Positions 30,517 through 52,740 of a stretch of DNA of 64,000 bases are shown piece after piece. Position 1 is the first letter of the stretch. Each line of letters starts with the position of its first letter. The position numbers and the translations under genes are program-made. The notes under the pieces were generated by a model. The model did not search any database, had not been told where the DNA came from, and worked only from the letters and a program-made list of their open reading frames with translations. Origin of the DNA: an uncultured Gammaproteobacteria bacterium (GTDB lineage: Bacteria > Patescibacteriota > Patescibacteriia > 2-01-FULL-39-33); the NCBI GenBank assembly GCA_964536975.1, contig CAZHYS010000001.1, positions 34,329-98,328 on the forward strand, given 5' to 3'.

Positions 30517-31119
30517 TTATAATAACCTATTTTTTTGCAAGAAGCTTTTTATCGCCAGAAATATCTTTTTGTGTCCTTGAGAATTAGAATGCAGGCCGTC
30601 ATCCAAGTCATCAATAGTCAAAAGATCAAAAATTTCCAAAAAATAGACTTGGTTTTTCTCGGAAAGCTCTTTCAGTTTTTGGTTGTATAAAGAAAGATGT
30701 TTGTTAAAATAGTGATAATCCGTTTCCCAGGGAATCGGCGCGGCCTTTGATTCGTCAACTTTTTTACAGCCGCAAAAAACTATTTTATCGGTAAACTTTT
30801 TTGACTTATCTATGAGCTGCTGGATATTCTTTTCAAATTCCTCAGCGGCGACCATTTGCCGGTTTTGCGATTTTATGAAGATGGAGTCATTGTCGCCGAT
30901 TGAAAAAATAATAACCGCCGGCTGCCTAGCTTCTGCTTCCACATCAAACCTGGCCAATAATTCTCTGGTCGTATCTCCGGAGACGCCAAGATTGTAGACA
31001 AACATGTCTTTGTCTTGGGAATCAATAAATAATCGCAAACGATTGACCCAGCCGCCTTTTTCTTTGTCCCACGCGCCCCAGGTTGAGCTGGCGCCAAAAA
31101 TGCAAATATTCTGTTCCAT
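30517..31119 (-). CDS. SGNH/GDSL hydrolase
   Basis: 'ICIFGASSTWGAWD' block I, 'GDND' block III, 'DGLHSN' block V. Confidence 0.75.
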   Translation of the reverse strand: MEQNICIFGASSTWGAWDKEKGGWVNRLRLFIDSQDKDMFVYNLGVSGDTTRELLARFDVEAEARQPAVIIFSIGDNDSIFIKSQNRQMVAAEEFEKNIQQLIDKSKKFTDKIVFCGCKKVDESKAAPIPWETDYHYFNKHLSLYNQKLKELSEKNQVYFLEIFDLLTIDDLDDGLHSNSQGHKKIFLAIKSFLQKNRLL

Positions 31120-31133
31120 GCGATAGTATTACT

Positions 31134-33817: not shown

Positions 33818-34222
33818 ATGATATCTTCTAGTATTAATTTCAAAGCATTGATTTTATGGCTGACCGCGGTCGTTTGGATGGGATTGATTTTTTATCTTTC
33901 CTCCATTCCCAGTTTTCCGGTGGATTTGACGGACGAAGGATATGATATCACTTCTTCCATTGTCCATGTGGTGATTTATTTTGTCTTGGCTTGGCTGTTT
34001 ATTGCCGCTTTGCGGTCGTCCGGCGTCAGAGCCGGCCGCGCTTTTTTTGGCGGATTTCTTTTGGCCATTGTTTACGGCGCGACAGACGAATGGCACCAGT
34101 CTTTTGTTATTGGCCGCGAAGCGCACTTGAGCGATTGGCTGCTGGACGTCGCTGGCGCTTATATAATTTTGAGTTTTTATACCTATCGCCACCGCCGGAA
34201 AAATCAGTTAAAATCGCATTGA
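33818..34222 (+). CDS. VanZ-family membrane protein
   Basis: 'GATDEWHQSFVIGREAHLSDWLLDVAGA' VanZ-like motif, four TM helices. Confidence 0.7.
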   Translation: MISSSINFKALILWLTAVVWMGLIFYLSSIPSFPVDLTDEGYDITSSIVHVVIYFVLAWLFIAALRSSGVRAGRAFFGGFLLAIVYGATDEWHQSFVIGREAHLSDWLLDVAGAYIILSFYTYRHRRKNQLKSH

Positions 34223-34353
34223 CATTTTCCTCTTTTGGCGTTAAGATATGGCGATTGGGAGGAAATGTTCCTTTCACTACGCAATATGGGAAACAATCAC
34301 TATCCGCTTGGCGCGGCTGGTGAGGTAACAGGGAAAATAGGAGGATAGGTTCT

Positions 34354-34926
34354 ATGTCCGAGGGAAAAGATGGTGCAAGTAACGCGCAGGGAAATCAAGA
34401 TGGAAGATTGGCTCCGGCAGAATACATTAAGGGTATCTTTGCGCAGTTTGAGCAAGAACCACAAGATGAAAGGAGAAAGATCTCCAGTTTATTGGTTGGT
34501 GCCATTGGAGACAAAAGAGCAGCACAGGAGGAGGCGTTGGCCGCCATGCAGGCGGCTTGCTTCGTTGATGTGTTTCAGTTGTTGGTTAAGGAGGGGGTTC
34601 TAAACAAAATCCACTCGGAACGGGATCCGGTCGGGGAATGTGATGAACCGGGTTGGCGTGCCCACTACCTGCTGACTCATGGCAGAATTCCGGTATTTCC
34701 TCTTGAGGAAAGGTTTACGGGCCGGGAGCACGACGAAAGCGAGTTCAAACAGCCACGATGGCTGCAGATAGTGATGGATGAATTGCGAGGTAGGGATTGG
34801 GATCCTTCCATTCTGGTTTATGTTTTTGCCGAATCTGGTATCGGCAATCATCGCATGGTTGATTTATGCGTCGCCGACCCGAGACAGCCGGCCACGGAAC
34901 AACCAGGGAAGCAAGAAGGAGAATGA
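34354..34926 (+). CDS. Hypothetical protein (orphan; higher-GC block)
   Basis: Strong RBS AGGAGG upstream; no recognisable domain. Confidence 0.55.
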   Translation: MSEGKDGASNAQGNQDGRLAPAEYIKGIFAQFEQEPQDERRKISSLLVGAIGDKRAAQEEALAAMQAACFVDVFQLLVKEGVLNKIHSERDPVGECDEPGWRAHYLLTHGRIPVFPLEERFTGREHDESEFKQPRWLQIVMDELRGRDWDPSILVYVFAESGIGNHRMVDLCVADPRQPATEQPGKQEGE

Positions 34927-35378
34927 CAATGCCAACTAGAGAATTGCTAAAAGTGGTAGCTCGGGGGGCATCTCGACCCGCCAGTACCAGAAGAAGCAGA
35001 AGGCCGGTCAAAGACATTGACCCGGCTGTTACGACTAGTCAGTACTTTTGGCCATTTTTTAGTCCTGATGCGGCCGCGCAGTTTCCTAGTAATCTGGAAG
35101 TCAACGACAAGATCAATATGCTTGAGTGGCTATTGGCCATCGCCAAAGCCATGCGGGAAAAGACCGAGACGGGATATCGGGCCGATAAGCCCTTAACCAT
35201 CATCAACCCAAGTCTCGGTGGCGTGGGACGAATTCCGGAATCGGTTAAGGAAATTCTCCAAGCCAGCGGTTGGCCAGTGGAGGAGAAAGAAGGTGGAGAA
35301 TATACCACCCACATTATCTTGACGCCGATCGGCTTGGCTGAACCAAAACAACAAGAGGAGAAAGGAGATGGAGTATGA
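34923..35378 (+). CDS. Hypothetical protein (orphan)
   Basis: RBS 'AAGGAGAATGACAATG'; translationally coupled to neighbours. Confidence 0.5.
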   Translation: MTMPTRELLKVVARGASRPASTRRSRRPVKDIDPAVTTSQYFWPFFSPDAAAQFPSNLEVNDKINMLEWLLAIAKAMREKTETGYRADKPLTIINPSLGGVGRIPESVKEILQASGWPVEEKEGGEYTTHIILTPIGLAEPKQQEEKGDGV

Positions 35379-35716
35379 GTGGGACTATTAACTCAAAGCC
35401 CAATCTGCCAACGGAACTATTTCCGGCGTCGTGGGTTGTCCGTAACAGTGGGGCGGAGGGCTGCAAAATTATCGTGGACATTTTGGCCATACTATGGATT
35501 CTCGCTGAGAGGTTGCTGTATGAGGCAACCCAGGACTACAAAGGAGAAAAGCCTGTCCGTCTCCCGCCTCTCCCGGATGACATGTCAAAACTGTGGGATC
35601 AGCTGAACATCCCGACGCTGTTTGCTCAGCGATTCGGCTGGTTCGCGGAAATGCAAGAGGACGGCAGCATTCTCTTGACGCCGATAACGATCGAGCCAGA
35701 GGATTTGGAGCCATGA
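35375..35716 (+). CDS. Hypothetical protein (orphan)
   Basis: RBS GGAGAAAGGAG; ATGA overlap with upstream gene. Confidence 0.5.
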   Translation: MSGTINSKPNLPTELFPASWVVRNSGAEGCKIIVDILAILWILAERLLYEATQDYKGEKPVRLPPLPDDMSKLWDQLNIPTLFAQRFGWFAEMQEDGSILLTPITIEPEDLEP

Positions 35717-35739
35717 CGATCGGCTCCGCTTTAGATATT

Positions 35740-35776
35740 CGCCCCGACGCGCAGTTTGCGTCGGGGTTCTTTTTTA
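35740..35776 (+). terminator. Rho-independent terminator
   Basis: 'cgccccgacgcgcagtttgcgtcggggttctttttt' GC stem + T-run. Confidence 0.7.
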
Positions 35777-35804
35777 TAAAATTTTAATCTGTGATTTTTC
35801 ACCC

Positions 35805-35833
35805 TTGACTATTTGCTGTATTTTTGTTAAACT
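35805..35833 (+). promoter_or_regulatory. Sigma70-like promoter (TTGACT-17-TAAACT)
   Basis: -35 TTGACT at 35805, 17-nt spacer, -10 TAAACT at 35828; about 60 nt upstream of next ORF. Confidence 0.5.
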
Positions 35834-35891
35834 AAGAAGTTGAAAGTCGTTCCTTAAACCATGGATGGAACATTATTGGGAGGGCCTGATT

Positions 35892-36215
35892 ATGTCGAGA
35901 AGAATGATTGTTTGTTCCGATGAAGATCGCCAAACGATTGGGATCAGTGATCTTTTGGCAATCAACTTTGACGGCGGGTTAGTCGTTTTTCAAGGTCAGC
36001 GTTGGCGAGTCAAAGTTCGTCCGCCCGGAAGCGATAAGGGGAGCTGGCAGCATGTCGCTTTTTTCTTTGATGAGGAGAAGGCGAATGAATGTCGCGATTG
36101 GATTAATCGTTTGGATCCCCATTGGGAGGCCGAGGTGGTGGAATTGGGAAAAACCGCGCGGGAAATCGCCGGACACAATAGTAATCGGAAAGGAGAGAGG
36201 TGTCATGTCGGATAA
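35892..36215 (+). CDS. Hypothetical protein (orphan)
   Basis: RBS GGGAGGG 7 nt upstream of ATG 35892. Confidence 0.5.
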   Translation: MSRRMIVCSDEDRQTIGISDLLAINFDGGLVVFQGQRWRVKVRPPGSDKGSWQHVAFFFDEEKANECRDWINRLDPHWEAEVVELGKTAREIAGHNSNRKGERCHVG

Positions 36216-36945
36216 GAAAAGATTTCGGAGGGTGTTGATCGTTGGTCGGGTCGTGGATGGCGACGAAAAGCTACTCGAGGTGGTTAAGTCGTCTCTGGGT
36301 GAATGGTATAAGACTCGTTTTCTCGAAGTCCTTTTGCTTGCGGTTTTGCAGGCAGAGAGAAAAGAGGTAGATTGCGTCGTTTTGTCCTTGATTGAGTCAC
36401 CTTGGACAACACGTGAACGGCAAGTTATTATACCAACCTTTAAGTGTTTTGACTCAGGTGCACCCGAAGAGGCTTTGCCGGACAACGGTCTTCGGGCGGC
36501 GATCGCGGTCAGGTCCATTAACCCGAGCTTGCCGATCGTACTGATCGTGCCGACAGAGGAGATCGCGGCCGAGCTGAAAGAGTATTGCGACGGCAATTCA
36601 ATCCAACTCTTTGCCAAGCCATTTGATCCGAAGGTGTTAGCCAAAGCGATTGAAAGAGAGACAGAGCGCGGGGAGACCTTCAACCTTCATCTTTCAGATG
36701 GACTTTGGGGCCTTTCTTACCACGCTGCTACTGATCACGGGACACGAATTTTGGACGAACTTCCTCCCGGTCGGCATGTCGCCTTGAGGGTTCCCGATCC
36801 ATTCGGCCAAGGCGATGCGTGTTTGGTGGTACCCGGGTCTGACTGGTTCTTGCCAGAGGCAATGCTCCAGTTCTACGCCGATGGTAACATTGGATTCGCC
36901 GGGGCGTATCCTCTTGTGGAAATCAAACCGGCGAAAACAGTATGA
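36205..36945 (+). CDS. Receiver (REC)-like domain protein with uncharacterised C-terminal domain
   Basis: 'RVLIVGRVVDGDEK...VDCVVLSL...PIVLIVP...FAKPFDPKVLAKAIE' resembles CheY-like receiver (KPF motif); RBS GGAGAGAGG. Confidence 0.45.
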   Translation: MSDKKRFRRVLIVGRVVDGDEKLLEVVKSSLGEWYKTRFLEVLLLAVLQAERKEVDCVVLSLIESPWTTRERQVIIPTFKCFDSGAPEEALPDNGLRAAIAVRSINPSLPIVLIVPTEEIAAELKEYCDGNSIQLFAKPFDPKVLAKAIERETERGETFNLHLSDGLWGLSYHAATDHGTRILDELPPGRHVALRVPDPFGQGDACLVVPGSDWFLPEAMLQFYADGNIGFAGAYPLVEIKPAKTV

Positions 36946-37080
36946 CGTCGTTGACTGTCGGCGCGCAAGCGAACGCGTGCCGGCAGTTTTTTTGTTTGTC
37001 ATATCCAATTATAATTTAATAAAACTTTCAATCTCCAATAATTGTATTTTTGCATCCCTATGCGACCATTAATAAATATT

Positions 37081-37160
37081 GTGCTAATTTTATGCGAAAG
37101 CGAGCGCTAAAAATTTTCGCAAGCGAAGCGTCAGAAAATTTTAGCGAGCGAAGCATAAAA
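37081..37160. repeat. Iteron-like tandem direct repeats (about 25-bp unit x3) followed by palindrome gccacttttctagaaaagtggc (37196-37217)
   Basis: 'gcgaaagcgagcgctaaaaatttt / cgcaagcgaagcgtcagaaaatttt / agcgagcgaagcataaaattt'. Confidence 0.6.
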
Positions 37161-37367
37161 TTTAGCCATGATTTATTACCGGTCGCGACTTTTGCGCCAC
37201 TTTTCTAGAAAAGTGGCATAAAAAAATAATTTATTTTTAAAATAAGATCGCCACGTCTACCACGGCACCCATATCCACCACAGGCGGACATGCCCTCATA
37301 TTCCATTTCCTAATTCCTAACTCCCTCCCCATTTCTCTTTTCTTCCAAAATAAGTTAAAATAGCCGT

Positions 37368-38636
37368 ATGAAAATCGTTGTTATTCATCCAATTTTTCAG
37401 CCGGAAACTCGCGGCGGCGCCGAGGTCGCCGTTGATAATATTGTCAACGGTCTTCTTGCCGCCGGCCACAATGTCGTCGTAATTTGCGTTGGCCGGAAAG
37501 ACGTTTCCGAAATCTCGGCTAATTATTTTCCCGATCAAAATGAAAGTTTGACGGTTTACCGTATCAAGCCGTTTAATCTTTTCAATTTTTTGGATATCAA
37601 TTCCCAGCCGGCTTGGCGCCGTTTGCCCTGGCACATTATTGATATGTTCAATATCAATCAGGCGTGGCGAGTCAAAGATATTTTATGCCAAGAAAATCCG
37701 GATTTGGTATTGACGCACAATCTCAAGGGCCTCGGCTACCTGATTCCTCGCGCCATTAAAAAATTAAAATTAAAACACGCCCATACCATTCACGATATGC
37801 AATTGTTGCATCCGTCCGGCCTGCTCGTAGAGACGGGGCATGCCCCGTCTCTACCAGTGGCCATTTATCGCTGGTTTTGCCGCTGGCTATTTGGTTCGCC
37901 GGAGACAGTGGCGTTTCCTTCCGAGTATATCAAAGCGGTTTACGAGCGTTACGGTTTTTTCAAAAAATCTTATAAGGTAGTCATCGGCAATCCGATTCAA
38001 TTTCCAATTTTTAATTTAAAATTTTCAAAAAAAACCGAAATTCTAAATTCTAAATTTCAAATTCTTTTCCTCGGTCAGGTGGAGGCCTACAAAGGCATTT
38101 TTGAGCTCATTGAGGCGCTAAAAGGGGTAACGGGCGATTGGGCACTGAATGTCGTGGGCGATGGCAAGGCCTTGCCAAAGGCCAAAATTTTGGCCCAGGA
38201 GGCCACTCCTGATGCCCTTTCTGGGGCTCTGGCTGGCCCCAGGATCAAGTTTTGGGGGCGCCTTGGCCAATCAGAGCTGGAGGAGAAAATCTGGCCGCGA
38301 ACAAATATTTTGGTCAACCCCAGCCTCACTAATGAAAGTTTTGGCATGGTGGTGGTTGAAGCGTATGCCCATGGCGTGCCGGCGCTGGTTTCGGGTAGGG
38401 GCGCTCTGCCGGAATTGGTGCGAGAAGGGGAGACAGGGTTTGTTGTTTCTTCCTCCCCCTTTAAAAGAGGGAGGCTGGGAGGGGGTGATTCCGCAGAATC
38501 ATGGCGGGAGAAAATAGATTGGTGTTTGACGCACCGCCGCGAGATAGAGGGGATGAGAGAGAAATGTATAAAAGAAGCGGAGAAGTATAAATTGGAAAAT
38601 TATTTGAATAGATTATTAAATTATATCAATAATTAA
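37368..38636 (+). CDS. GT4 glycosyltransferase (carries in-frame mini-repeat insertion)
   Basis: 'GGAEV' N-terminus, 'ESFGMVVVEAYAHGVPALVS' EX7E; insertion 'SSPFKRGRLGGGDSAES' encoded by GC-rich palindromic element. Confidence 0.75.
   Translation: MKIVVIHPIFQPETRGGAEVAVDNIVNGLLAAGHNVVVICVGRKDVSEISANYFPDQNESLTVYRIKPFNLFNFLDINSQPAWRRLPWHIIDMFNINQAWRVKDILCQENPDLVLTHNLKGLGYLIPRAIKKLKLKHAHTIHDMQLLHPSGLLVETGHAPSLPVAIYRWFCRWLFGSPETVAFPSEYIKAVYERYGFFKKSYKVVIGNPIQFPIFNLKFSKKTEILNSKFQILFLGQVEAYKGIFELIEALKGVTGDWALNVVGDGKALPKAKILAQEATPDALSGALAGPRIKFWGRLGQSELEEKIWPRTNILVNPSLTNESFGMVVVEAYAHGVPALVSGRGALPELVREGETGFVVSSSPFKRGRLGGGDSAESWREKIDWCLTHRREIEGMREKCIKEAEKYKLENYLNRLLNYINN
38451..38487. repeat. GC-rich palindromic mini-repeat, copy B (in-frame inside GT4 CDS)
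   Basis: 'tcctccccctttaaaagagggaggctgggagggggt'. Confidence 0.75.
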
Positions 38637-38691: not shown

Positions 38692-39327
38692 CTATGCTTT
38701 TTTTCGCCGTTTGGCGACTGCCAATCCGGCGAGACCCAGACCGAGCAGTGTCATCGTCGCCGGCTCGGGGACGATTGAGGCCGGGCCCGTGGCAGTGATG
38801 GAGATATGACTGACCCTATCTGCCATTAGTAGCGGGTCGTCGTAGATAATTGGCGACTCTTGTCCGTAGTAGTTGATATTGAAGTCAACTGTCCACCCGG
38901 GCAACGATGACGAGACGGAATCCAAATGGTAGTCCAGCCGGTATCCTCCCCAGATATCGTCCGGGTGGTTATATTCAAATACCCGCGCCGTGATCTCATC
39001 AAACTCCGCCGTCCTTCCGGCCAGTAGTCCCCAAATCTCATTATCACGAAACTCCAGCAGGCCGTTCCCAAGAGTCACATCATATGTCCTGGTGCCGGCC
39101 ACATCTGATACGAGTTCAATGTCGATCAAGTCGGCAGTAAAATCATAGTCGGCGCTTTGGATTCCCATCCCCACCGACTCTCGGACGGAGTAGAACCACT
39201 CGCCCGAATCAATATTACCTCCGCCATAGCCGGCCCCTGACCAGTGGTAGGTGATCATATCCGCGGACGCGATGCCGCAGAAAATAGTCATGACCGCCGT
39301 GGTTGCAAAGAACATACTGCTTCTCAT
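38692..39327 (-). CDS. Secreted PEP-CTERM sorting-domain protein
   Basis: Signal peptide 'MRSSMFFATTAVMTIFCGIASA'; C-terminus 'VPEPATMTLLGLGLAGLAVAKRRKKA' (PEP + TM + basic tail); GC noticeably higher than neighbours. Confidence 0.75.
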   Translation of the reverse strand: MRSSMFFATTAVMTIFCGIASADMITYHWSGAGYGGGNIDSGEWFYSVRESVGMGIQSADYDFTADLIDIELVSDVAGTRTYDVTLGNGLLEFRDNEIWGLLAGRTAEFDEITARVFEYNHPDDIWGGYRLDYHLDSVSSSLPGWTVDFNINYYGQESPIIYDDPLLMADRVSHISITATGPASIVPEPATMTLLGLGLAGLAVAKRRKKA

Positions 39328-39462: not shown

Positions 39463-39729
39463 ACATTTACCATTAGATTTTATTAATATGGAACAAAAAT
39501 TTAAACAAATTCACTTGGCCTACAGAACCGATCGCGGCATGGATGTCGTCTCCGGCGTCTTTTCTTATGGTTTGGCCAAGGCAGTGTTTAAATTTTGAAT
39601 AATTCCCAACTTCAAATAATCAAAAACTTCCTCGGCCAGACCGCCGAGTTTTTTGTTTTTCGCCGGTCGGGATTGCACCTTACAACCGTCCTTGCAAGTC
39701 GCAAGGGCCAAACAGCAGGAGGAAGTGAC

Positions 39730-40926
39730 ATGGATACGAAACAGGCGCAAAGAAATGTGGCGTTGTATTACTTTTTTCAGCTTCTGCGGGAGCCGTTGTT
39801 CTGGGGACCGATTCTAATAAGTTATATCATGGCGGTTTCGCGAATGACGCTGTCGGAGATTTACGCGATGGAGGCGATCTGTCTGGTCGGAATAATGCTT
39901 TTGGAAGTGCCTTCCGGCGCGCTGGCCGATTTGCTCGGCCGCCGCCGGACCATCTTTATCGGCTCGGCGTTGTTTATCGCCGACAATCTGGTTTTTGCCT
40001 TGGCCGATAGCAAGCTGATGATTTGGTCAGCTAATCTGATTTGGGTCGTCGGTTTTTCTCTGGTATCCGGCGCGGACAGCTCACTGCTTTATGACAGCCT
40101 GAAAGTGCTGGGACAAGAAGACGATTACAAAAAGATAGAAGGCCGTTCCACTGCCTATCGTTTTTTGCTAGCGGCGGCGTGTTCGGTTTTTGTCGGCTAT
40201 CTGACCAGTTACAGCTGGCGCTTGCCGGTCGGATTGGGAGTTGTTTTTATCGCCGCCAATTGTCTAGTGACTTGGTTTTTTGTTGAGCCGCCATTTGCCG
40301 GCGGCAAGAAATACAGCGCCGCCGGACATTGGCAATTGATGAAGTTGAGTGTGTTATTTGTCGCTAATCATCGCCCGGTCAAATGGGTGATCGTTTTTTC
40401 GGTTCTGGTGGGGGTGGTGTCCAAGATTTGGTTTTTCACCTACAACCCCTATTTTGAACTAGTCGGATTGCCGCTTCATTATTACGGCTGGTTGTTTTTC
40501 GGGCTCAATTTGGTCGCGGCGTTTTTTTGCCATCAGGCCGATCGCTTGTATAGAAGGCTGGGCGACTTCGGCAGTATCGTGATGATGCTCTCGGCAGTCA
40601 GTTTGCCGATTTTGGCGATGGGCCTTGTCGTCTCTAAGCCGCTGGCGCTGTTGGTGATTATGCAGAATGTGGCGCGCGGTTATTACAACCCGTTCATTGG
40701 CCACTTTCTCCATCGTTATCTGGACTCGGCCAATCGGGCGACGGTCGTCTCTATTAAGTCGGCAGTCCGCGGCTTGGGGGAATTCGTCATGCTCGGCGCT
40801 TTCGGGCTCTTGCTCAAGGCAGTATCATTGCCGGTCGGGTTGGAAATTTTGGGAGGAATTTCCCTGGCCGGCGGCGTTTGGCTGATTGTTTCGTATCGAC
40901 GGATTTTCGTTGATACAACCGATTAA
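39730..40926 (+). CDS. MFS transporter
   Basis: 12 TM helices, 'GALADLLGRRR' MFS motif A-like; start chosen at ATG with AGGAGG RBS (ORF opens at 39595). Confidence 0.7.
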   Translation: MDTKQAQRNVALYYFFQLLREPLFWGPILISYIMAVSRMTLSEIYAMEAICLVGIMLLEVPSGALADLLGRRRTIFIGSALFIADNLVFALADSKLMIWSANLIWVVGFSLVSGADSSLLYDSLKVLGQEDDYKKIEGRSTAYRFLLAAACSVFVGYLTSYSWRLPVGLGVVFIAANCLVTWFFVEPPFAGGKKYSAAGHWQLMKLSVLFVANHRPVKWVIVFSVLVGVVSKIWFFTYNPYFELVGLPLHYYGWLFFGLNLVAAFFCHQADRLYRRLGDFGSIVMMLSAVSLPILAMGLVVSKPLALLVIMQNVARGYYNPFIGHFLHRYLDSANRATVVSIKSAVRGLGEFVMLGAFGLLLKAVSLPVGLEILGGISLAGGVWLIVSYRRIFVDTTD

Positions 40927-41123: not shown

Positions 41124-41900
41124 TTATTCGTGGCCGCCATGGCGTTTGAGGAAATTGACGACCCGGGCAAGATAGGCATCGGTTCCAGTGAAGAATAATC
41201 CGGGGTTGGCGGCAGTATTGACAGCCAGCGCAAGAGGCGTTTTACCGTTCGTAGTCCGGCTGTTGATTGGGATGCCGGCCTTTACCAGCATTCTTGAAGC
41301 CGCCAATTTGCAACTTTCGGCGGCGGCATGAAGGGCGTTATAGCCGCGGCCATCTTTGGCTTGCAACTCTGCGCCGCTACGCAACAAAATGCGCATTGCT
41401 TTTGTTTGGTTGCATCTAGCCGCGAAGTGAAGCAGTGTCTCTTTTCGGTTGGTGTCGCCATTGACGACAGTGGCATTGACGTCGGCTCCGTGTTTAATCA
41501 GCAGGCGCAGAGTGCTCTGGTCATGATTGGCTATCGCGCATTGGAGGAGTTGGCCAGAGTTTTTGACTTTAGCGCCACACGCGATGAGCCGGCGGCAGAA
41601 GTCGGTTTTTTTCTTAGACACGGCGTAGCCGAGCAGGGTTGTTGCCGCCGGAGCATAAAGGTTGGTCATCAGCGGTACGATGTTGTCGTTGATGTTATCC
41701 AAACAAAACGGCAAAATCGCCTCAAATGACTCATTGTCTCCGCGCTCAATTGCCATCATCAAAATATGGGCGGGTGTGTTGCCGGTCAGTTTCTCCACGG
41801 CTTTTTGGAGACACTGATACTGTACGACCTTCTCGATAAGTATGGCGATCTTGTCAAGAAGCTCCTCCTTAATAGGTGGCTTTTTTTTGGTTGTCTTCAT
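41124..41900 (-). CDS. Ankyrin-repeat protein
   Basis: Several 33-aa repeats 'LLHFAARCNQTKAMRILLRSGAELQAKDGRGYNALHAAA', 'TPLALAV'. Confidence 0.75.
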   Translation of the reverse strand: MKTTKKKPPIKEELLDKIAILIEKVVQYQCLQKAVEKLTGNTPAHILMMAIERGDNESFEAILPFCLDNINDNIVPLMTNLYAPAATTLLGYAVSKKKTDFCRRLIACGAKVKNSGQLLQCAIANHDQSTLRLLIKHGADVNATVVNGDTNRKETLLHFAARCNQTKAMRILLRSGAELQAKDGRGYNALHAAAESCKLAASRMLVKAGIPINSRTTNGKTPLALAVNTAANPGLFFTGTDAYLARVVNFLKRHGGHE

Positions 41901-44518: not shown

Positions 44519-44930
44519 TTGTCATTGCGAGTCCGCCGCGGCGGATATGGCAATCCCATATTGATTAAGAGTAACCATTCTAAAAACATGGGATCGCCAC
44601 AGTCGTCCGCTTTCGTATTAACAAAATCGTCCTCCCTCGCGATGACACAGTCTTTCGGGTTACCGACTATTCCGAGTTCCGTAGAGACGTCCCGAGCGTT
44701 CGGGGCGTCTCTACAATTATTACTGATTACTTGTTACTTATTACGGTTTCATAGACTTTATGAACTTTACGGACTTTATAGACTTTTGACTACTAAAATT
44801 CCATGTTATGCGTTACGTGATTTCCGAGTTACGAGTCGCGAGTTCCGGGTTGCGGATAGACGCGATAAATCGCGTCTCTACAAATCCCTACATCCTAATT
44901 CCTAATTCCTAATCCCTGTGCTATAATATA
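44519..44930. repeat. Composite intergenic repeat block (palindromic 'gtcattgcgag...cgcgatgacaca', 'ccgagttacgagtcgcgagttccg', 'cctaattcctaa' arrays)
   Basis: Related copies at 50100-50310 and 62150-62300; ORF 44519..44905 here is repeat-derived. Confidence 0.6.
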
Positions 44931-44936
44931 CTCATT

Positions 44937-45899
44937 ATGGAAGGTGAAATCAAAAAATTTTTACGCCGTTTGTCACAGGAATTTTTTTTGTTCGCGCCGC
45001 AGAAAAACGGCCGGATTTTAAAGATCAAAGAAGTCCGCGACATTGACGATATTGATTGGTCGGGAGCGATTCCGCAAAACACTTGGAAGGAGCTATTTTT
45101 GCCGGCGAGAGAAAAACTTTTTGACATCTCGGCCGATCGGCTTGTTTCAGCTGGAAAGAGCGGGCCGAAAGTTGCCGCTATTGGGGTCAATGTCGTTGAC
45201 CTCAAAGCAATTACCTTGTTTGAGTTGGTATTTAGCCGCGATGTTTATTATCAGGCGCGTCGGCGCAATACTCTGATTGTCGGTTATAGCTCATCGTGGC
45301 CCAATGATTACAAAAAATACAAAGTCTTCAGCCACAATTTTGAAGAGGATATTTTGGAACACTTGATTTTTGATATTTTTATCGCTCATTTTGCCGACGG
45401 CCGATTGAAGATTTATTCCGGTTCGGAAAAGGGCCAGCGGGCGCTGGAATCTGGCGGCATCAAAAATTATGAACACATAGAATTTGCCGGACCGATTTCC
45501 GAAAAGGGTCCGGACAAAAGGATGTTGCTGCTCAAGAAAAAAATGGAATCGTCAGAAGGCAGAAAAGTTTGGGATGAATTAGGCAAGACTTGCATCGCTT
45601 GCGGCAAATGTTCCATCGCTTGTCCGACTTGTTTCTGCTTTGACTTGGAAGACAAAATGGATCCGGACAATTCCGGCCGGAATAGAAAATGGGGCAACTG
45701 TTTTTATAATGATTTTTCACTGGTGGCCGGCGGCGGCAAAGAGCTGGACACAGTCAAGAAAAAAATATTTTTTTGGTATTTTCACAAGTTCGTCCGCATT
45801 CCTTTTGAATATATGATTCCCGGCTGTGTCGGCTGCGGCCGGTGCAGCCGCGCCTGCCCGGTCGGGATAAAGATAGAAGAAGTGTTAAAGAAAATTTAA
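44937..45899 (+). CDS. hydB: [NiFe] hydrogenase group 3b-like beta subunit (4Fe-4S dicluster; HydB/AsrA-like)
   Basis: 'CIACGKCSIACPTCFCF' and 'CVGCGRCSRACPVG' ferredoxin-type motifs; first gene of B-G-D-A order. Confidence 0.65.
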   Translation: MEGEIKKFLRRLSQEFFLFAPQKNGRILKIKEVRDIDDIDWSGAIPQNTWKELFLPAREKLFDISADRLVSAGKSGPKVAAIGVNVVDLKAITLFELVFSRDVYYQARRRNTLIVGYSSSWPNDYKKYKVFSHNFEEDILEHLIFDIFIAHFADGRLKIYSGSEKGQRALESGGIKNYEHIEFAGPISEKGPDKRMLLLKKKMESSEGRKVWDELGKTCIACGKCSIACPTCFCFDLEDKMDPDNSGRNRKWGNCFYNDFSLVAGGGKELDTVKKKIFFWYFHKFVRIPFEYMIPGCVGCGRCSRACPVGIKIEEVLKKI

Positions 45900-45914
45900 A
45901 GCTAAAAATGAAAA

Positions 45915-46289
45915 ATGCAAAATAACAGCGCAAAATTTAAAATTGATCTGAAAAAGAGGTCATATCTATATGCTTTGGATATCATAAAATTTTTAGACAA
46001 TTTAGATAAAAAAGATTTTTTCGTTGAGGTGATTATTAAACAACTTTTAAGAAGTGCTACAAGTATCGGCGCCAATATTATTGAGGCCCAAGCCGGAAGC
46101 AGTAAGAAAGATTTTACTAATTTTTTCAGTTATGCCTTAAAATCAGCAAATGAAAGTAAATTTTGGCTGGCTCTGCTTAGGGATTCAGCCAAGTCTAAGA
46201 GAAATGAAGTAGATGATTTGCTGGCGGAGACAAACGAAATAGCAAATATTCTCGGTTCCAGTATTTTGACTTTGAAAGGCAAAAGGTGA
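45915..46289 (+). CDS. Four-helix-bundle protein (23S rRNA intervening-sequence protein family)
   Basis: 'LLRSATSIGANIIEAQAGSSKKDF' signature. Confidence 0.7.
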   Translation: MQNNSAKFKIDLKKRSYLYALDIIKFLDNLDKKDFFVEVIIKQLLRSATSIGANIIEAQAGSSKKDFTNFFSYALKSANESKFWLALLRDSAKSKRNEVDDLLAETNEIANILGSSILTLKGKR

Positions 46290-46369
46290 TTTATATTTTA
46301 AGTTTTTATTTTTAATTTTTCATTTTGCGTTTTTCGCTTTACGCTTTCCGCTTTACGTCTTACGTTTTT

Positions 46370-47188
46370 ATGCTCAACATCTACCAACCCCATCAAGCCA
46401 AGATCGTTTCGGCGGTTCAAGAATCAATTGACACTTGTCTTTTTAGATTCAAATTTGTTGACCTTGGCGTCCAGGACGATTTCCGTTTTTTGCCCGGCCA
46501 ATTTGTCCAAATCGGTTTGCCCGGTTGGGGAGAATGTCCGATTAGCATTTGTTCATCGTCTGCCGATAGCGAAGATTTTTTTGAATTGGCCATTAGGGAT
46601 GTCGGGACACTCACTCACAAATTGAATAGCTTGAGGGCCGGCGATATCGTTGATGTGCGCGGGCCGTTTGGCAATGGTTTTGACGCGGACTTATTCAAAG
46701 GCAAGCCGCTACTGCTCATTGGCGGCGGTTGCGGTTTTATTCCTTTGCGGTCGCTAATAATTGATCATCTTCATAGTCGGCTGAAGAATACCAGCCTGCA
46801 GATTCTTTATGGTTGCGCCAGTGAAAGCACGATGCTGTTTAAAAAAGATCACGCCGCTTGGAATCGGCGCGCCGAGCTGAAAGTCATCTTGGAGCATCCA
46901 TCAAAGGAATGGAGGGGCGAGCGGGGATTGGTCACGGACCTAATCGGCAAAATAAAAATTACCAGCGATACGGTCGCGGTGCTGGTCGGGCCGCCGGTAA
47001 TGTACAAATTCGTCATCAAAGAACTCAAAAAAAAGAAAATCAGCGCGGAAAATATTTTTGTGTCGCTGGAAAAAAGAATGTATTGCGGCGTCGGCGTTTG
47101 CCAGCATTGCGCCATTGGTCCGTTTTATGTCTGTAAAGATGGCCCGGTTTTCCGGTGGTTAGATATTGAAAAGTATTATAGTCAATAA
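46370..47188 (+). CDS. hydG: Hydrogenase gamma subunit (FAD/NAD(P)-binding + C-terminal 2Fe-2S; HydG/AsrB-like)
   Basis: 'FLPGQFVQIGLPGWGECPISICS', 'LLLIGGGCGFIPLRS', C-terminus 'CGVGVCQHCAIGPFYVCKDGPVF'; ORF opens at 46325 within repeat-like sequence. Confidence 0.65.
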   Translation: MLNIYQPHQAKIVSAVQESIDTCLFRFKFVDLGVQDDFRFLPGQFVQIGLPGWGECPISICSSSADSEDFFELAIRDVGTLTHKLNSLRAGDIVDVRGPFGNGFDADLFKGKPLLLIGGGCGFIPLRSLIIDHLHSRLKNTSLQILYGCASESTMLFKKDHAAWNRRAELKVILEHPSKEWRGERGLVTDLIGKIKITSDTVAVLVGPPVMYKFVIKELKKKKISAENIFVSLEKRMYCGVGVCQHCAIGPFYVCKDGPVFRWLDIEKYYSQ

Positions 47189-47236
47189 AGTCAAAAGTCA
47201 AAAGTCTATAAAGTCCGTAAAGTCCATAAAGTCAAA
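47182..47236. repeat. Inverted-repeat partner of 44748-44793 (about 38 bp core, 1 mismatch)
   Basis: 'agtcaaaagtctataaagtccgtaaagtccataaagtc' is reverse complement of 'gactttatgaactttacggactttatagacttttgact'. Confidence 0.7.
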
Positions 47237-47321
47237 TTGACAAATTGTTATATTGTTAAATTGTCCGCTGCCGTTTTAAAATTAAAAATTGTTTTGAAAT
47301 TTTAAATTTAAAATTGGAAAT

Positions 47322-47362
47322 TTTATTAGACATTAGAAATTAGACATTAGAAATTTTATTAG
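47322..47362. repeat. 'tagaaatt/tagacatt' repeat array; inverted partner at 52751-52781, related copy 57310-57350
   Basis: 'ttttattagacattagaaattagacattagaaattttattag' vs 'tctaatttctaatgtctaatttctaataaaa'. Confidence 0.65.
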
Positions 47363-47436
47363 TCCCTAATCGCTAAATGCTACTTGCTATACGCCATAAG
47401 CCATAAGCTATTCGCTATTTGCCATAAGCCATTCCT

Positions 47437-48687
47437 ATGTGTCTTACTATCCCTCTCCAAATCAAAAATATTTCCAACGGCCGGGCCGAGCTGTCCGATG
47501 GCCGTCTGGTTGTCGCGCCGTTAATCTCTGATTTGAAAAAAGGGGATTGGGTGCTCCACACTGGCGATTTTTTGATAAAAAAAATAGAGGCCGAAGAAGC
47601 TCGGGAGATTCTGGAACTGATTGATTCGTATCCCGGAATTAATTTGGATGAATTTCCGCCGAAGTTCAAAAATATTTTGGAGTCAACCGCCGAGCGGGAA
47701 TTGTCCGCGCAGGAGATTGAATACTTGCTCGGCATTGAAGACGAGCAGCTGCTCCGGGCGATTTATTCCCAAGCCAATACGATTAGAAAATTGAGCATCA
47801 AGGATCATATTTGCATCCACGGCATTATTGAGTTTTCCAATCATTGCCGCAACAACTGTTTGTATTGCGGATTGCGGAGTGACAATGATATCCGGCGTTA
47901 TCGGATGAGCGTGGAGGAGATTGTTGATCGGGCGGTTTGGGCGGCCGAAGATAAGGGCTATAAAATTCTGGTACTGCAGTCGGGTGAGGACGAATATTAT
48001 GATGAAGAAAGATTATTGCAAATCGTGAGAGGCATCAAATCCCGTTGCCGAGTATTTATCTATTTGAGCATCGGCGACAAGCCAATGGAGACTTACGCCA
48101 AATTGAAAGTAGCGGGCGCGAGCGGGGTATTGTATCGGTTTGAAACTTCCAATAGCGAATTGTATGCAAAATTGCATCCAGGCGACAACTTGGCGGAGCG
48201 ACTGGACAACATCAGAAAAATGAAAGCGCTCGGCTACATCATTTCTTCCGGGCCGATCATCGGTTTGCCCGGCCAGACCATTAAGGATTTGGCGAATGAT
48301 GTGGAGCTGATGCGGGGGTTGGGCGTATTTATGCCGTCAATGGGGCCGTTTATTCCGGCCGGCGGGACGCCGCTGGAGCAGGCAAAGAGCGGTGATTTTG
48401 AACTGTCGCTCAAAATGATCGCGGTGACGCGGCTGGCAATGCCCAAGGCGCGGATTCCGGTGACGACGGCGATGGAGACAATCGGCCCGGCCGATGCCCG
48501 CCATTTGGCGTTTATGGCCGGCGCTAATAGCGTGATGTTCAATCTGACGCCGGAAAAATACCGCAAGGATTATTTTATTTATAACAACAAATTTTTTGAT
48601 CGTGAAAGAAGATACGAGAAATGGGCACTATTTAAGGGAGAGCTTAGTTATAAAATGTTGGAAGACGAGATTGGAGTGAAAATATAG
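47437..48687 (+). CDS. HypC-like domain fused to BioB/HydE-family radical SAM domain
   Basis: N-terminus 'MCLTIPLQIKNI...GDWVLHTGDFLIKKIEAEEAREILELI' collinear with HypC/HupF; 'CRNNCLYCG' CxxxCxxC plus BATS-like region. Confidence 0.65.
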   Translation: MCLTIPLQIKNISNGRAELSDGRLVVAPLISDLKKGDWVLHTGDFLIKKIEAEEAREILELIDSYPGINLDEFPPKFKNILESTAERELSAQEIEYLLGIEDEQLLRAIYSQANTIRKLSIKDHICIHGIIEFSNHCRNNCLYCGLRSDNDIRRYRMSVEEIVDRAVWAAEDKGYKILVLQSGEDEYYDEERLLQIVRGIKSRCRVFIYLSIGDKPMETYAKLKVAGASGVLYRFETSNSELYAKLHPGDNLAERLDNIRKMKALGYIISSGPIIGLPGQTIKDLANDVELMRGLGVFMPSMGPFIPAGGTPLEQAKSGDFELSLKMIAVTRLAMPKARIPVTTAMETIGPADARHLAFMAGANSVMFNLTPEKYRKDYFIYNNKFFDRERRYEKWALFKGELSYKMLEDEIGVKI

Positions 48688-48782
48688 TTAAAATAATGAT
48701 AAAATTAAAGGGATTCCTCCGCTTTCGGTCGGAATGACAATGGGAACAGTAAATCATAAAGAATGTTTGTAATTTTTACAAT

Positions 48783-49595
48783 ATGAAATTGAAAAGTAAA
48801 ATCAAAAAACCGCGGATTGCGATTATCGGCCTTACTTCGTGCGAGGGTTGCCAATTTGTGATGCTGGATCAGGGCAAGAAATTTTTGGATTGGCTGGACA
48901 AAGTGGAAATGGAGGAGTTCCGTTTGATAGAGGACGAGCCAATGTTGGCGTCGCATTACGATATTTGTTTTGTGGAAGGCAATCCTGTCACTCGCGCCAA
49001 CATCAAATTGCTCAAAGAGATGCGGCAGAAATCGGACAAACTAGTGGTAGTTGGCAATTGCGCCGCCTTGGGCGGGGTGTGGGAGCTCAAAAATTACGCT
49101 TCCAAAACCAAAGCGATCAGGGCGGTGTACAAAAAATTGAAAGTCCCGAATCCCGACATCAAAGAAGTGGACAATTTTGTCAAAGTGGATTATGTCATTC
49201 CCGGCTGTCCGATTGACGGGGATGAATTTATTGAGCTGGCCAATCAGCTTTTGGCCAAGAAGACTTTCCGTCTCTCGCAAAATCCGGTTTGCGATGAATG
49301 TCAAAAAGCCGGTTATGAGTGCCTGCTCCAAAAAGGTGAGATTTGTCTCGGACCGATTACGCTCGGCGGTTGTCATGCGGTCTGCTTGAAATCAAAACAG
49401 GCCTGCTGGGGTTGTCGCGGGTTGTTTGATGGCGCGCAAGTGGAAAATTTTATGGAATATCTGCTGAAAAATTTTTCTCGCGAACAAGTCTATCGGGTAA
49501 TGGAGGTATTTGGCGCGCGCGATACGATTTTGAAGCGATTGAAAGAAATGCAGGCGGGAGAGGATGAAAAATCAAAAATAAAATTTAAAAAATAA
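48783..49595 (+). CDS. hydD: [NiFe] hydrogenase small (delta) subunit
   Basis: 'RIAIIGLTSCEGCQFVML', 'VVVGNCAALGGV', 'GCP' motifs of NuoB/HydD-type small subunits; Cys-rich C-terminus. Confidence 0.7.
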   Translation: MKLKSKIKKPRIAIIGLTSCEGCQFVMLDQGKKFLDWLDKVEMEEFRLIEDEPMLASHYDICFVEGNPVTRANIKLLKEMRQKSDKLVVVGNCAALGGVWELKNYASKTKAIRAVYKKLKVPNPDIKEVDNFVKVDYVIPGCPIDGDEFIELANQLLAKKTFRLSQNPVCDECQKAGYECLLQKGEICLGPITLGGCHAVCLKSKQACWGCRGLFDGAQVENFMEYLLKNFSREQVYRVMEVFGARDTILKRLKEMQAGEDEKSKIKFKK

Positions 49596-49596
49596 T

Positions 49597-49636
49597 TCAC
49601 GTCAGTACGCGCGTACTGACGTTCGTACTGACGTCA
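49597..49636. promoter_or_regulatory. 24-bp perfect palindrome 'acgtcagtacgcgcgtactgacgt' plus extra half-site
   Basis: Immediately upstream of AbrB-like small ORF; candidate operator or hairpin. Confidence 0.5.
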
Positions 49637-49641
49637 AATAT

Positions 49642-49809
49642 ATGATAAAATACATTAGAAAGCTGCAAAAAGCGAGCACCCACAGCTACGTTATCACAAT
49701 TCCCAAGGAGTTGATAGAAAAGTTTCGTTGGAAAGAAAGACAGAAATTGGAAATCGCTTGCGACGGCAAAACCGCCAAATTGACAATTAAGGATTGGCGT
49801 AAAAAATAA
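49642..49809 (+). CDS. AbrB/MazE (SpoVT-AbrB) family small DNA-binding protein, 55 aa
   Basis: 'THSYVITIPKELIEKFRWKERQKLEI...KLTI' swapped-hairpin-like; below ORF-track size cut-off. Confidence 0.45.
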   Translation: MIKYIRKLQKASTHSYVITIPKELIEKFRWKERQKLEIACDGKTAKLTIKDWRKK

Positions 49810-49820
49810 TCGGCAAAAAT

Positions 49821-50075
49821 ATGTCGGTAGAAATCTTAGAACAGCCGCAAATAGATCGGCTGGATTTGGAGCATCGGGATTACCTCCAGCGCGAAGTGAT
49901 GCGGCAAATGCTCGGAGAAGAGCCGGGTTATGAAACTCAGCTTGACTGGGTACTTAAATACGGCAAAAAAGTCAGTGATTTGATTGATTTTCACGAGCAT
50001 GACGAAATTAGGGGCTTGGCCATGGATGGCAATTATGAAGAGGCGGCGCAGAGATTAATTGAGTTGTTGGATTGA
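49821..50075 (+). CDS. Hypothetical acidic 84-aa protein
   Basis: ORF only. Confidence 0.4.
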   Translation: MSVEILEQPQIDRLDLEHRDYLQREVMRQMLGEEPGYETQLDWVLKYGKKVSDLIDFHEHDEIRGLAMDGNYEEAAQRLIELLD

Positions 50076-50384
50076 TGGGGGATGGAATACTGGGATCGTA
50101 GGCAGTAATCAGTAATTGGTAACGGGATTTTGGTTCGGAACTCGTAACTCGCGACTCGTAACTCGGAATAGTCCGTGATGTGGAGTACTGCGTCATCCCG
50201 AGCGAAGTCGAGGGATCCCTCCACGGAGTTTACCCTGAGCGTAGTCGAAGGGATCGGGATGACAAAATGGAAATGGGATTGCTTCGTCCGCTTGAGGCGT
50301 CCTCGCAATGACAGTGCTAAGCGGATTGGAAATTTATTGTAAATTTTAAATTGAAAACTTGTGGTGAACGAAGCTGAACCATTA

Positions 50385-50642
50385 AAAATTTGTAGCTATG
50401 CGCATCCAAATTAATCATATTGGCAAGATGTCCGCCTTCGCTCCGTTGAGCTTTGGCGAGACGAATATTTAGATAATTAATTATTTTTTTAAAATTTGTA
50501 GCTATGCGCATCCAAATTAATCATATTGGCAAGATGTCCGCCTTCGCTCCGTTGAGCTTTGGCGAGACGAATATTTAGATAATTAATTATTTTTTTAAAA
50601 TTTGTAGCTATGCGCATCCAAATTAATCATATTGGCAAGATG
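50385..50642 (+). repeat. 106-bp tandem direct repeat (about 2.3 copies), each copy containing the first 33 nt of hydA and its upstream region
   Basis: 'aaaatttgtagctatgcgcatccaaattaatcatattggcaagatg' recurs with ATGs at 50398, 50504, 50610; first two copies continue 'tccgccttcgctccgttgagctttggcgagacgaatatttag'. Confidence 0.85.
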
Positions 50643-51941: not shown

Positions 51942-51945
51942 AATG

Positions 51946-52056
51946 GCATATGGCTAATAGCTTATAGCATATAGCTTATAGCTTATAGCTTATAGCTTAT
52001 AGCTTATAGCATATAGCATATAACATATAGCTTATAGCATATAGCATATGGTATAT
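51946..52056. repeat. Microsatellite (agcttat / agcatat heptamer array)
   Basis: 'agcttatagcttatagcttatagcttatagcttatagcatatagcatat'; reverse-complement motif 'ccataagc' arrays at 47385-47430 and 52455-52480. Confidence 0.85.
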
Positions 52057-52081
52057 AATGAATAAATTATAATGATACTTC

Positions 52082-52435
52082 ATGTTTAGGTTTGAAAGTT
52101 TGGAAATATGGCAGGAAGCCATTAAATTTTCTAATTTAATTTATAATATAACAGGAAAGTTTCCCAAAGAAGAATTATTTGGATTGGCCAGTCAATTAAA
52201 TAGAGCGGCGGTTTCGGTTTCTGCAAATATAGCCGAAGGATCAGCAGCTGCCTCGGTAAAAGAATTTACTATGTTTCTTGGCTTTTCAATCCGCTCGGGA
52301 GTTGAAGTTATTTCGGAATTATTTATCGCAAAGGAGAGGGGATATATTAAAGATCAAGAATTTCAAGAATTATATTCTATCGGGGAAATATTAATAAAAA
52401 GAATAACTTTTTTCAAAAACAATTTAAAAAAATAG
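52082..52435 (+). CDS. Four-helix-bundle protein (23S rRNA IVS protein family)
   Basis: 'LASQLNRAAVSVSANIAEGSAAASVKEF'. Confidence 0.7.
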   Translation: MFRFESLEIWQEAIKFSNLIYNITGKFPKEELFGLASQLNRAAVSVSANIAEGSAAASVKEFTMFLGFSIRSGVEVISELFIAKERGYIKDQEFQELYSIGEILIKRITFFKNNLKK

Positions 52436-52485
52436 GCAGATGTCATGTGTTATGAGCCATATGCCATTAGCCATAAGCTAATTTT

Positions 52486-52740
52486 ATGCACGATTTCCAT
52501 CTCGCCGACCAAATCTACAAGACGATTATGGATTACGCGGCGAAAAACAACCTGAAAAAAATCACCAAAGCGACGATTGAACTCGGCTCAATTGTGGAGC
52601 ATGGCGAAGAAATTTTGCCGGAGAATTTGGTTTTTAACATTAAGATGTTGGCCGAAGGCGGACTAGCGGAAGGCCTGGAAGTGTCTGTCGCCAAAATCGC
52701 CGGCGACAGTTGGATACTTAAGGAGATAGAAGGAGAATAG
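52486..52740 (+). CDS. HypA-like N-terminal domain protein lacking Zn-finger
   Basis: 'MHDFHLADQIYKTIMDYAAKNNLKKITKATIELGSI' resembles HypA MHE N-terminus; no Cys in 84 aa. Confidence 0.4.
   Translation: MHDFHLADQIYKTIMDYAAKNNLKKITKATIELGSIVEHGEEILPENLVFNIKMLAEGGLAEGLEVSVAKIAGDSWILKEIEGE

Follow-up and report, generated by a model that had tools for sequence, protein, structure and literature searches.

A variable accessory islet of five orphan genes led by Shine-Dalgarno sites at a vanZ/GT4 junction of an uncultured bacterium

Islets made up of ORFan genes are common in uncultured bacteria, and as a kind they are already known. The closest described counterparts of the locus analyzed here are the small flexible genomic islets found at chromosomal hot spots. 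The locus is a block of five plus-strand open reading frames (ORFs), g1 to g5, located at positions 34354-36945 of a 64-kb stretch of contig CAZHYS010000001.1 (hereafter, the window), between a vanZ-like gene and a gene for a GT4 glycosyltransferase. As in small flexible islets, an atypical composition is combined with content variation at a single backbone junction, a short direct repeat flanks the insert, and the insert is dispensable and exists as deeply diverged, recombined alleles. Unlike them, this islet carries no integrase, tRNA, or mobility gene, each of its genes is an ORFan, and the contrast between its genes, which are led by Shine-Dalgarno (SD) sites, and the largely non-SD host is unusually clean. 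It is this SD/non-SD contrast, together with the variable-conserved-variable alleles of g5 and the lack of relatives in very large databases, that makes the locus unusual.

The islet, which extends over 3.1 kb (34218-37346), is very probably an acquired, variable accessory element of the genome. The best explanation overall, to which a probability of roughly 0.55 can be assigned, combines this with a reconstructed history of the insert and a conflict or recognition role for its products; such a function of the islet proteins, taken by itself and judged from the sequences, is a tentative and somewhat doubtful proposal. The initial annotation had viewed the block as a horizontally acquired cassette of five orphan genes. 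Five plus-strand ORFs with no family match above threshold are indeed present, and the composition, the SD sites, promoters, and terminators, the variable presence among strains, and an 18-nt flanking repeat agree with acquisition, although not with a simple recent insertion. The features of the locus are, in order:

33818-34222: vanZ-like gene (Pfam VanZ), left neighbor of the islet
34200-34217, plus strand: left copy of the 18-nt direct repeat, AAAATCAGTTAAAATCGC, within the final codons of the vanZ-like gene
34219-34247, plus strand: promoter-like element P1, TTGACA-17-TAAGAT, ~100 nt 5' of g1
34354-34926, plus strand: g1, acidic soluble orphan protein of 190 aa, AGGAGG 9 nt upstream
34923 or 34929-35378, plus strand: g2, orphan protein of 151 or 149 aa
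35375-35716, plus strand: g3, orphan protein of 113 aa, ATGA overlap with g2
35741-35767 followed by a T-run (to 35777), plus strand: intrinsic terminator of operon 1, 11-bp GC-rich stem, -21.3 kcal/mol, z -3.7
35805-35833, plus strand: promoter-like element P2, TTGACT-17-TAAACT, TG-extended, preceding g4-g5
35892-36215, plus strand: g4, orphan protein of 107 aa, GGGAGG 8 nt upstream
36205-36945, plus strand: g5, orphan protein of 246 aa, weakly receiver-like in its central segment and β-rich in its C-terminal domain
36953-36988 followed by a T-run (to 36998), plus strand: intrinsic terminator of operon 2, 14-bp stem, -28.3 kcal/mol, z -3.7
37094-37167: three imperfect ~25-nt direct repeats, GCGA[A/G]GCG...AAAATTT
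37196-37217: perfect 22-nt palindrome, GCCACTTTTCTAGAAAAGTGGC, unique in the window, with 0 expected by chance
37347-37364, plus strand: right copy of the 18-nt direct repeat, AAAATAAGTTAAAATAGC, directly 5' of the GT4 start
37368-38636: GT4 glycosyltransferase gene, right neighbor of the islet

All five block genes are preceded by SD sites (AGGAGG, AGGAG, or GGAGG) located 7-9 nt upstream, which bears out the earlier remark that each of them has a strong ribosome-binding site (RBS). Among the 47 backbone genes, an SD site is found at the listed start of only one, where the motif is borderline, and of at most 4 when every possible start codon up to codon 60 is accepted; hand arithmetic from 5/5 versus 4/47 gives a hypergeometric p of ~5e-5 for the enrichment in the block. 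The upstream regions of backbone genes throughout the 64-kb window are A/T-rich and almost devoid of SD motifs. The SD-poor host backbone is comparable to the non-SD “group B” that GeneMarkS-2 distinguishes among genomes, with Bacteroides ovatus as an example, where only ~3% of the genes match an SD pattern (PMC6028130).

The five genes are arranged in two transcription units, g1-g2-g3 and g4-g5, each behind a sigma-70-type promoter of classic form; the leaders are long, in contrast to the short A/T-rich ones of the backbone. P1 is conserved in the sister strains, and a TTGACA element after the vanZ stop codon is also found in L006, the nearest other species; the segment that contains P2 is 93 to 97% identical between alleles. 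The terminator after the third gene and the TTGACT-17-TAAACT promoter behind it, both described in the initial annotation, were found. Strong intrinsic terminators number only five in the 64 kb, this one included, and four of them are clustered within 35.7-41 kb. Translational coupling through ATGA overlaps, which had been claimed for the block, holds for the g1/g2 and g2/g3 pairs but not for g4/g5, where the overlap is 11 nt long and is not an ATGA. The second ATG of g2 (at 34929) is better spaced from its SD site, and its use as the start codon would abolish the g1/g2 overlap. All five proteins are hydrophilic and acidic to near-neutral (pI 4.4-6.6).

Many backbone genes have a TATAAT- or TAAAAT-like box 6-26 nt from the start codon (e.g., those at 37368, 44937, and 52870), which suggests, at the level of sequence, leaderless or very-short-leader mRNAs or some form of non-SD initiation. 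The only other full AGGAGG motifs at listed starts precede a PEP-CTERM gene (38692-39327, minus strand) and an ankyrin-repeat gene (41124-41900, minus strand). Both genes have a GC content of 0.52-0.54, are adjoined by strong terminators, and are absent from L006, and they look like additional foreign islets, whose donor may have been of a similar kind. The ORF for a major facilitator superfamily (MFS) transporter (39595-40926) probably starts at codon 46 (MDTKQ...), which is preceded by AGGAGG and lies near the point where similarity to L006 begins; few other backbone genes have an SD site.

A composition scan with 123 sliding 2.6-kb windows across the 64 kb identified the block as the strongest outlier, both in GC content (0.507 versus 0.449 ± 0.022) and in tetranucleotide distance (0.350 versus 0.203 ± 0.028, ~5 standard deviations above the mean). 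The foreign composition that had been noted by eye is thus real in these two respects, but the proposed difference in codon choice proved modest, with significant shifts only for GAG among Glu codons (0.52 versus 0.37, p = 0.014) and AAC among Asn codons (p = 0.015). The shift toward AAG among Lys codons has p = 0.06, and CAG for Gln and GAC for Asp are used as in the backbone. Most of the compositional signal is carried by amino acid usage, in which Pro, Glu, Gln, Trp, and Arg are elevated and Tyr, Asn, Phe, Lys, and Ile are depleted.

The block is set among housekeeping and envelope genes, within a glycosylation cluster, and the sister-strain contigs share the gene order VIT1-like, GlnA, GT4, VanZ, and then the block. 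Contigs L002, L003, and L005, from three sequencing runs, carry the relatives of g5 in flanks that are 98 to 99% identical to the window, and the g1 protein recurs unchanged on six contigs, at least four of which derive from separate runs (accessions SRR118456xx). The content of the islet varies: g1-g5 in the window, g2-g5 in L002 and L005, a remnant in L004, g1 only in L006, and unrelated ORFs in a more distant genome, L020. The segment missing from L002 and L005 corresponds to window positions 34346-35006, i.e., g1 and the first 28 codons of g2. In L004, all that is left is an in-frame g2::g5 fusion that lacks an RBS and joins an L002-type piece of g2 to a window-type C terminus of g5, which indicates that the islet can be dispensed with and that its alleles are reassorted. 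Along the islet, identity between the window and L005 changes abruptly, from 91-93% in 35007-35274 to 68-78% in 35275-35622, 89-97% in 35623-36250, 64-70% in 36253-36477, 96-99% in 36478-36612, and 37-63% in 36613-36954, returning to 97-98% beyond 36955. Judging from these alignments, the islet appears to be dispensable, with g1 lost in one strain type and only the g2::g5 remnant kept in another, and its alleles appear to be mosaics reassorted by recombination. A second strain-level indel lies ~3 kb from the block, at a GDSL-lipase gene (30517-31119, minus strand): L002 and L005 precisely lack positions 30524-31128, and the gene is also absent from L006.

L006, a metagenome-assembled genome (MAG) of an unclassified “bacterium,” represents the nearest other species, with a GlnA that is 82% identical and with the backbone synteny kept; the contigs L069-L071 from the Joint Genome Institute (JGI) belong to the same species as L006. 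Between VanZ and GT4, L006 encodes only a 189-aa homolog of g1 (29.5% identity, E 8e-11), which has its own TTGACA promoter, GGAG motif, and terminator. Because this homolog is syntenic in a genome whose GlnA is only 82% identical, g1 is apparently old at the vanZ/GT4 site, and g2-g5 appear to be confined to the species of the window. Conserved synteny, which the initial annotation regarded as the sign of vertical inheritance, is accordingly seen for g1, whereas g2-g5 are absent from L006.

Comparison of the window with the sister strains shows that the flanking genes are little diverged, with a synonymous divergence (dS) of 0.04-0.06 and a ratio of nonsynonymous to synonymous divergence (ω) of 0.06-0.17. 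The conserved segments of the islet have flank-like dS values of 0.06-0.11; in its variable segments dS is saturated (0.7-1.7), with ω of 0.13-0.38. Taken over the mosaic alleles of g2, g3, and g5, the little-diverged segments span dS values of 0.06-0.25. Relative to the L002 allele, g2 has 83% amino acid identity (dS 0.38, ω 0.23) and g3 has 69% (dS 0.53, ω 0.39), while g4 combines a flank-like dS of 0.08 with a nonsynonymous divergence (dN) of 0.07 and thus an ω of 0.88, as would be expected if g4 were adjusting, as a partner, to an exchanged allele of g5 or if the constraint on it were relaxed. The g5 alleles alternate between variable, conserved, and hypervariable segments, and the N-terminal half is hypervariable (dS 1.47). 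The genes are real and functional, even their most diverged segments showing purifying selection, and dS values 10 to 40 times those of the flanks, at ω well below 1, point to imported or long-maintained alleles and not to recently relaxed constraint. The variable segments thus look like old alleles under purifying selection that were assembled by recombination. A diversity-generating retroelement or local hypermutation was also considered and ruled out: synonymous sites are saturated, indels are abundant, and there is no reverse transcriptase.

These values also bear on the view that g1-g5 are native genes of the lineage, vertically inherited and fast-evolving under weak constraint, that arose in situ or very long ago. 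The presence of a block at the same locus in every relative, the g1 homolog at the L006 site, the backbone-like G+C content at third codon positions (GC3), and the ω of g4 are all compatible with such an origin. It is nevertheless unlikely, given that the variable segments exceed the flanks 10- to 40-fold in dS while ω stays well below 1, that the block is the top tetranucleotide outlier, that its SD sites, promoters, and terminators differ in style from those of the backbone, and that L006 lacks g2-g5.

The two copies of the 18-nt direct repeat, which match at 16 of 18 positions, enclose the islet, one exactly at the stop of vanZ and the other just 5' of the GT4 start codon. Only 3 of 1653 gene-end/gene-start window pairs match equally well (p ~0.002), and L006 has an equivalent repeat at both edges of its own insert, the copy 5' of its GT4 ortholog having the same sequence as in the window. 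The right copy includes a TAAAAT box 6 nt 5' of the GT4 start codon. On this sequence evidence, the repeat could be a duplicated junction left by an old insertion, and, if there is any integration scar at this locus, it is a better candidate than the ~25-nt repeats that had been suggested for that role. The spot between vanZ and GT4 is filled in every relative found, so the empty site that the initial annotation proposed to look for was not seen in any of them. In L020, the same junction is occupied by a pair of paralogous ORFs of 164 aa each (7254-8374), which run on the opposite strand and have no Pfam match and, by hhalign against all five families, no detectable relation to g1-g5. Because the window, L006, and L020 hold differing inserts there, the junction is a hot spot for accessory genes.

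Scans of g1-g5 against Pfam, PADLOC, PHROGs, and NCBIfam returned no match except for a weak one of g5 to Response_reg (see below); the best PHROGs match has an E value of 0.027. Searches with blastn against 50,697 phage and 72,556 plasmid records found no match, IMG/VR holds no relatives of any of the five proteins, and Rfam yielded nothing in the window, nor in the block at E values up to 1. In a word-indexed search of 5.8 billion proteins, g1 and g3 were found in their own species only; among the JGI metagenome contigs, there was nothing for g4, and g1 was found only on contigs of the L006 species. Sequence searches of the PDB (with single sequences of g1, g4, and g5 and with profiles of g2, g3, and g5) gave nothing significant.

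Within the block, g2 and g3 are similar to each other (hhalign E 0.002, BLASTP E 0.02) and so may be paralogs, a relationship that is weakly supported by these alignments. A shared “L..GW...β-hairpin...(D/E)P” ending, seen by eye, would add g1 to this family, but hhalign does not support it, and a local “INPSL” match between g2 and g5 (p 0.018) was lost under multiple testing. The AlphaFold2 (AF2) model of g3, with a predicted local distance difference test (pLDDT) score of 75.5, consists of a long helix followed by a β-α-α-β-β arrangement and has no significant fold match in the PDB or among viral folds, the best one being KhpB/EloR (E 0.26). This C-terminal β-α-α-β-β unit and the top PDB match recall the small KH/R3H domains, as does a GGVG loop that is equivalently placed in g2. 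Against membership in that group, the Foldseek match of g3 falls short of significance (E 0.26, template modeling [TM] score 0.39), Pfam gave neither a KH nor an R3H match, and g3 lacks the GxxG loop.

Downstream of g5, the initial annotation had recognized three ~25-bp repeats and a 22-bp palindrome. Both are real, although the repeats are imperfect: at a shift of 25, 30 of 48 positions match, a value equaled in 1 of 1000 Markov shuffles, and neither Tandem Repeats Finder (TRF) nor a repeat finder reported them. The region can also be folded into a long hairpin (z -3.6), and it may act as a structured element or the repeats may be bound by a protein. The first ~25-nt unit is kept in the sister strains; the repeats and the palindrome lie inside the islet, to the left of the right-hand 18-nt repeat, and are absent from L006. 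All of the short-read Logan contigs that reach this region (L001-L005, 5/5, from five runs) stop at 37108-37127, in the first ~25-nt units, including one that is 100% identical to the window; these stops could reflect repeat-number variation, the hairpin structure, or another genomic copy.

With three ~25-nt direct repeats, an AT-rich stretch, and an adjacent palindrome, the right end of the islet resembles the iteron origins of plasmids and phages, which is how it had been interpreted. It differs from them in the imperfection of the repeats and in the absence of an initiator (no Rep-like protein in Pfam or NCBIfam scans), of DnaA boxes (none with at most 1 mismatch between 28309 and 41694), of any inflection in the cumulative GC skew, which rises monotonically through the site, and of plasmid or phage similarity, and the reading as a replication origin was not upheld. 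The same data bear on the idea that the whole block is what is left of a prophage, a plasmid, or an integrative element, with the repeats and the palindrome serving as iterons or recombinase arm sites. The repeats and the palindrome near the right end of the islet, the enclosing direct repeat, the compact SD-led genes, and the joint absence from L006 of g2-g5, the 25-nt repeats, and the palindrome would suit such an origin. However, it is quite improbable: there is no Rep, integrase, or transposase gene, nothing in PHROGs at E <0.02, no DNA match among the phage and plasmid records, and no IMG/VR relative of any of the five proteins. Moreover, the repeats are imperfect, in a genome rich in intergenic tandem repeats (68 TRF rows), no DnaA boxes lie nearby, and the GC skew shows no inflection. 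The earlier suggestion of a prophage remnant or defense island likewise found no backing in PHROGs, PADLOC, or the phage, plasmid, and IMG/VR collections.

The 68 tandem-repeat rows reported by TRF in the window are mostly intergenic and include a series across 44700-52830 (e.g., 47180-47438, 50385-50642, and 51949-52057), with 14 copies of TATAGCT and 2.4 copies of a perfect 106-bp unit among the examples found between hydrogenase-related genes. A gene for a four-helix protein of the 23S rRNA intervening-sequence type (45915-46289) has the lowest GC content of any gene in the window, 33%.

The product of the last gene, g5, had been described as having a CheY-like receiver pattern and an unknown C-terminal domain. 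A weak and partial resemblance to receiver (REC) domains exists, but it is below threshold and disappears in the sister allele. The match to Pfam Response_reg (PF00072) has an E value of 0.0088, scores 16.6 bits where the gathering threshold is 30.2, and relates residues 94-150 of g5 to profile positions 56-111. Similarly weak matches to the receivers of VirA, NtrC, and DctD share the same register, β4-α4-β5-α5, which ends in AKPFD, and a small REC profile, built from four receiver sequences, aligns with residues 101-154 only. The likeness to REC domains and pseudo-receivers thus consists of residues 94-155, including the KPF motif. It does not recognizably extend to the N-terminal half, which should contain the phosphoryl-accepting Asp and the acidic pocket: this half cannot be aligned to REC profiles, no such residues were identified, and the strand that by eye would correspond to β3 reads VDCVVLSL, with Ser at the expected place of the Asp. 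In the sister allele (P0002), there is no REC match and Arg replaces the Lys of the KPF motif; no histidine kinase is encoded near the islet that could serve as a partner. On balance of these alignments, g5 is at best a degenerate, probably nonphosphorylatable receiver-like protein whose membership in the REC family is not established.

A role for g5 as a true response regulator, one that accepts a phosphoryl group and has an output domain of a novel kind, in a cassette that would regulate the neighboring envelope glycosyltransferases, is very improbable. What speaks for this is the common register of the Response_reg, VirA, NtrC, and DctD matches, the AKPFD motif, the alternating β and α elements predicted by a low-confidence model of g5, and the position of the block inside a glycosylation cluster, whereas the subthreshold score over profile positions 56-111 only, the unrecognized and hypervariable N-terminal half (dS 1.47) with VLSL at the place of the Asp, the sister allele with its Arg, and the lack of a nearby histidine kinase all speak against it. 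The word-indexed search of 5.8 billion proteins found only two relatives of g5, both from its own species, and an exhaustive profile search of 1.84 billion representatives added to its own family three marginal matches (E ~2e-4) to multirepeat proteins with Calx-beta and SpaA β-sandwich repeats, which could be taken as a hint of a β-sandwich in the C-terminal domain at most. A PilZ-like C terminus, considered on the basis of an RxxxR motif seen by eye, was rejected, as the sister allele does not keep the motif and Pfam gave no match.

The explanation of the islet preferred here assumes that the first arrival at the vanZ/GT4 junction was a unit of promoter, g1, and terminator, inserted with a duplication of ~18 nt before the L006 species split off, and that g2-g5 and the AT-rich, repeat-bearing tail would have been added later, in the species of the window, with g2 and g3 arising by duplication. 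The proteins would then act together in the cytoplasm as a module for recognition or conflict (defense, immunity, or addiction), whose polymorphism would be maintained through frequency-dependent selection. In g5, the conserved α/β segment at the center, which resembles β4-α5 of receivers but is unlikely to undergo phosphorylation, could serve as the interaction core, the hypervariable N-terminal segment and the β-rich C-terminal domain could be the specificity determinants, and g4 could be a coevolving partner. A conflict module would jointly explain the segment-wise ancient polymorphism, the loss of genes in some strains, and the fast-changing small partner gene. By analogy only, the alternation of conserved and hypervariable segments in g5 and the shuffling of ancient alleles by recombination recall HsdS of type I restriction-modification systems; this is a resemblance in evolutionary pattern, and g5 differs in having no Methylase_S similarity and no HsdM or HsdR neighbors. 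Carrying the analogy further, to an undescribed conflict or recognition system with g4-g5 as the specificity core, g5 as a degenerate receiver-like scaffold whose N-terminal segment and C-terminal domain recombination swaps between strains in the manner of HsdS target-recognition domains, and g1-g3 as small α+β effectors or adaptors, would be speculative and, on present data, not likely to be correct.

A more familiar arrangement would be an addiction or toxin-antitoxin-like pair of g4 and g5, accompanied by paralogous accessory genes and persisting as selfish DNA. Small size, overlap, and a promoter of their own would suit such a pair, as would the variability and dispensability of the locus. 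This has a low probability, since none of g1-g5 matches a toxin or antitoxin family in Pfam, NCBIfam, or PADLOC and neither the protein sizes nor a first operon of three genes is typical of such systems; the joint loss of g3, g4, and most of g5 in L004 is uninformative either way.

Several observations weigh against the combined account of acquisition and conflict. GC3 in the block (0.49-0.63) is inside the backbone range and most of the synonymous codon choice is host-like, which means that the transfer is old or the donor similar; no donor was identified. No tRNA is present in the 64-kb window, and the Pfam scan found no integrase or transposase domain in the block. With g1 syntenic in a second species, its inheritance has been vertical since the split. 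The conflict role draws on an evolutionary pattern, with no domain, structure, or neighbor behind it: PADLOC-DB v2 gave 0 families at E values up to 1 for all five proteins, and the AF2 model of g5 (pLDDT 35) is unusable. The number of allele types, only three, limits what can be concluded about recombination breakpoints and frequency-dependent selection.

For the biology of this lineage, the islet means, in the first place, that genes led by SD sites and equipped with classic promoters and terminators mark foreign DNA in an SD-poor host, and that this marker, which is cleaner here than GC3 or codon usage, has value for annotation. Furthermore, g1-g5 represent five real protein families under selection for which no relatives outside the lineage were found in billions of sequences. 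The segment-wise ancient polymorphism of g4-g5, in strains that are otherwise 98 to 99% identical, is a typical signature of specificity or immunity loci. If the islet does not encode a conflict system, it would be an ordinary ORFan islet; if it does, the system would be new and would stem from an uncultured lineage about which little is known.

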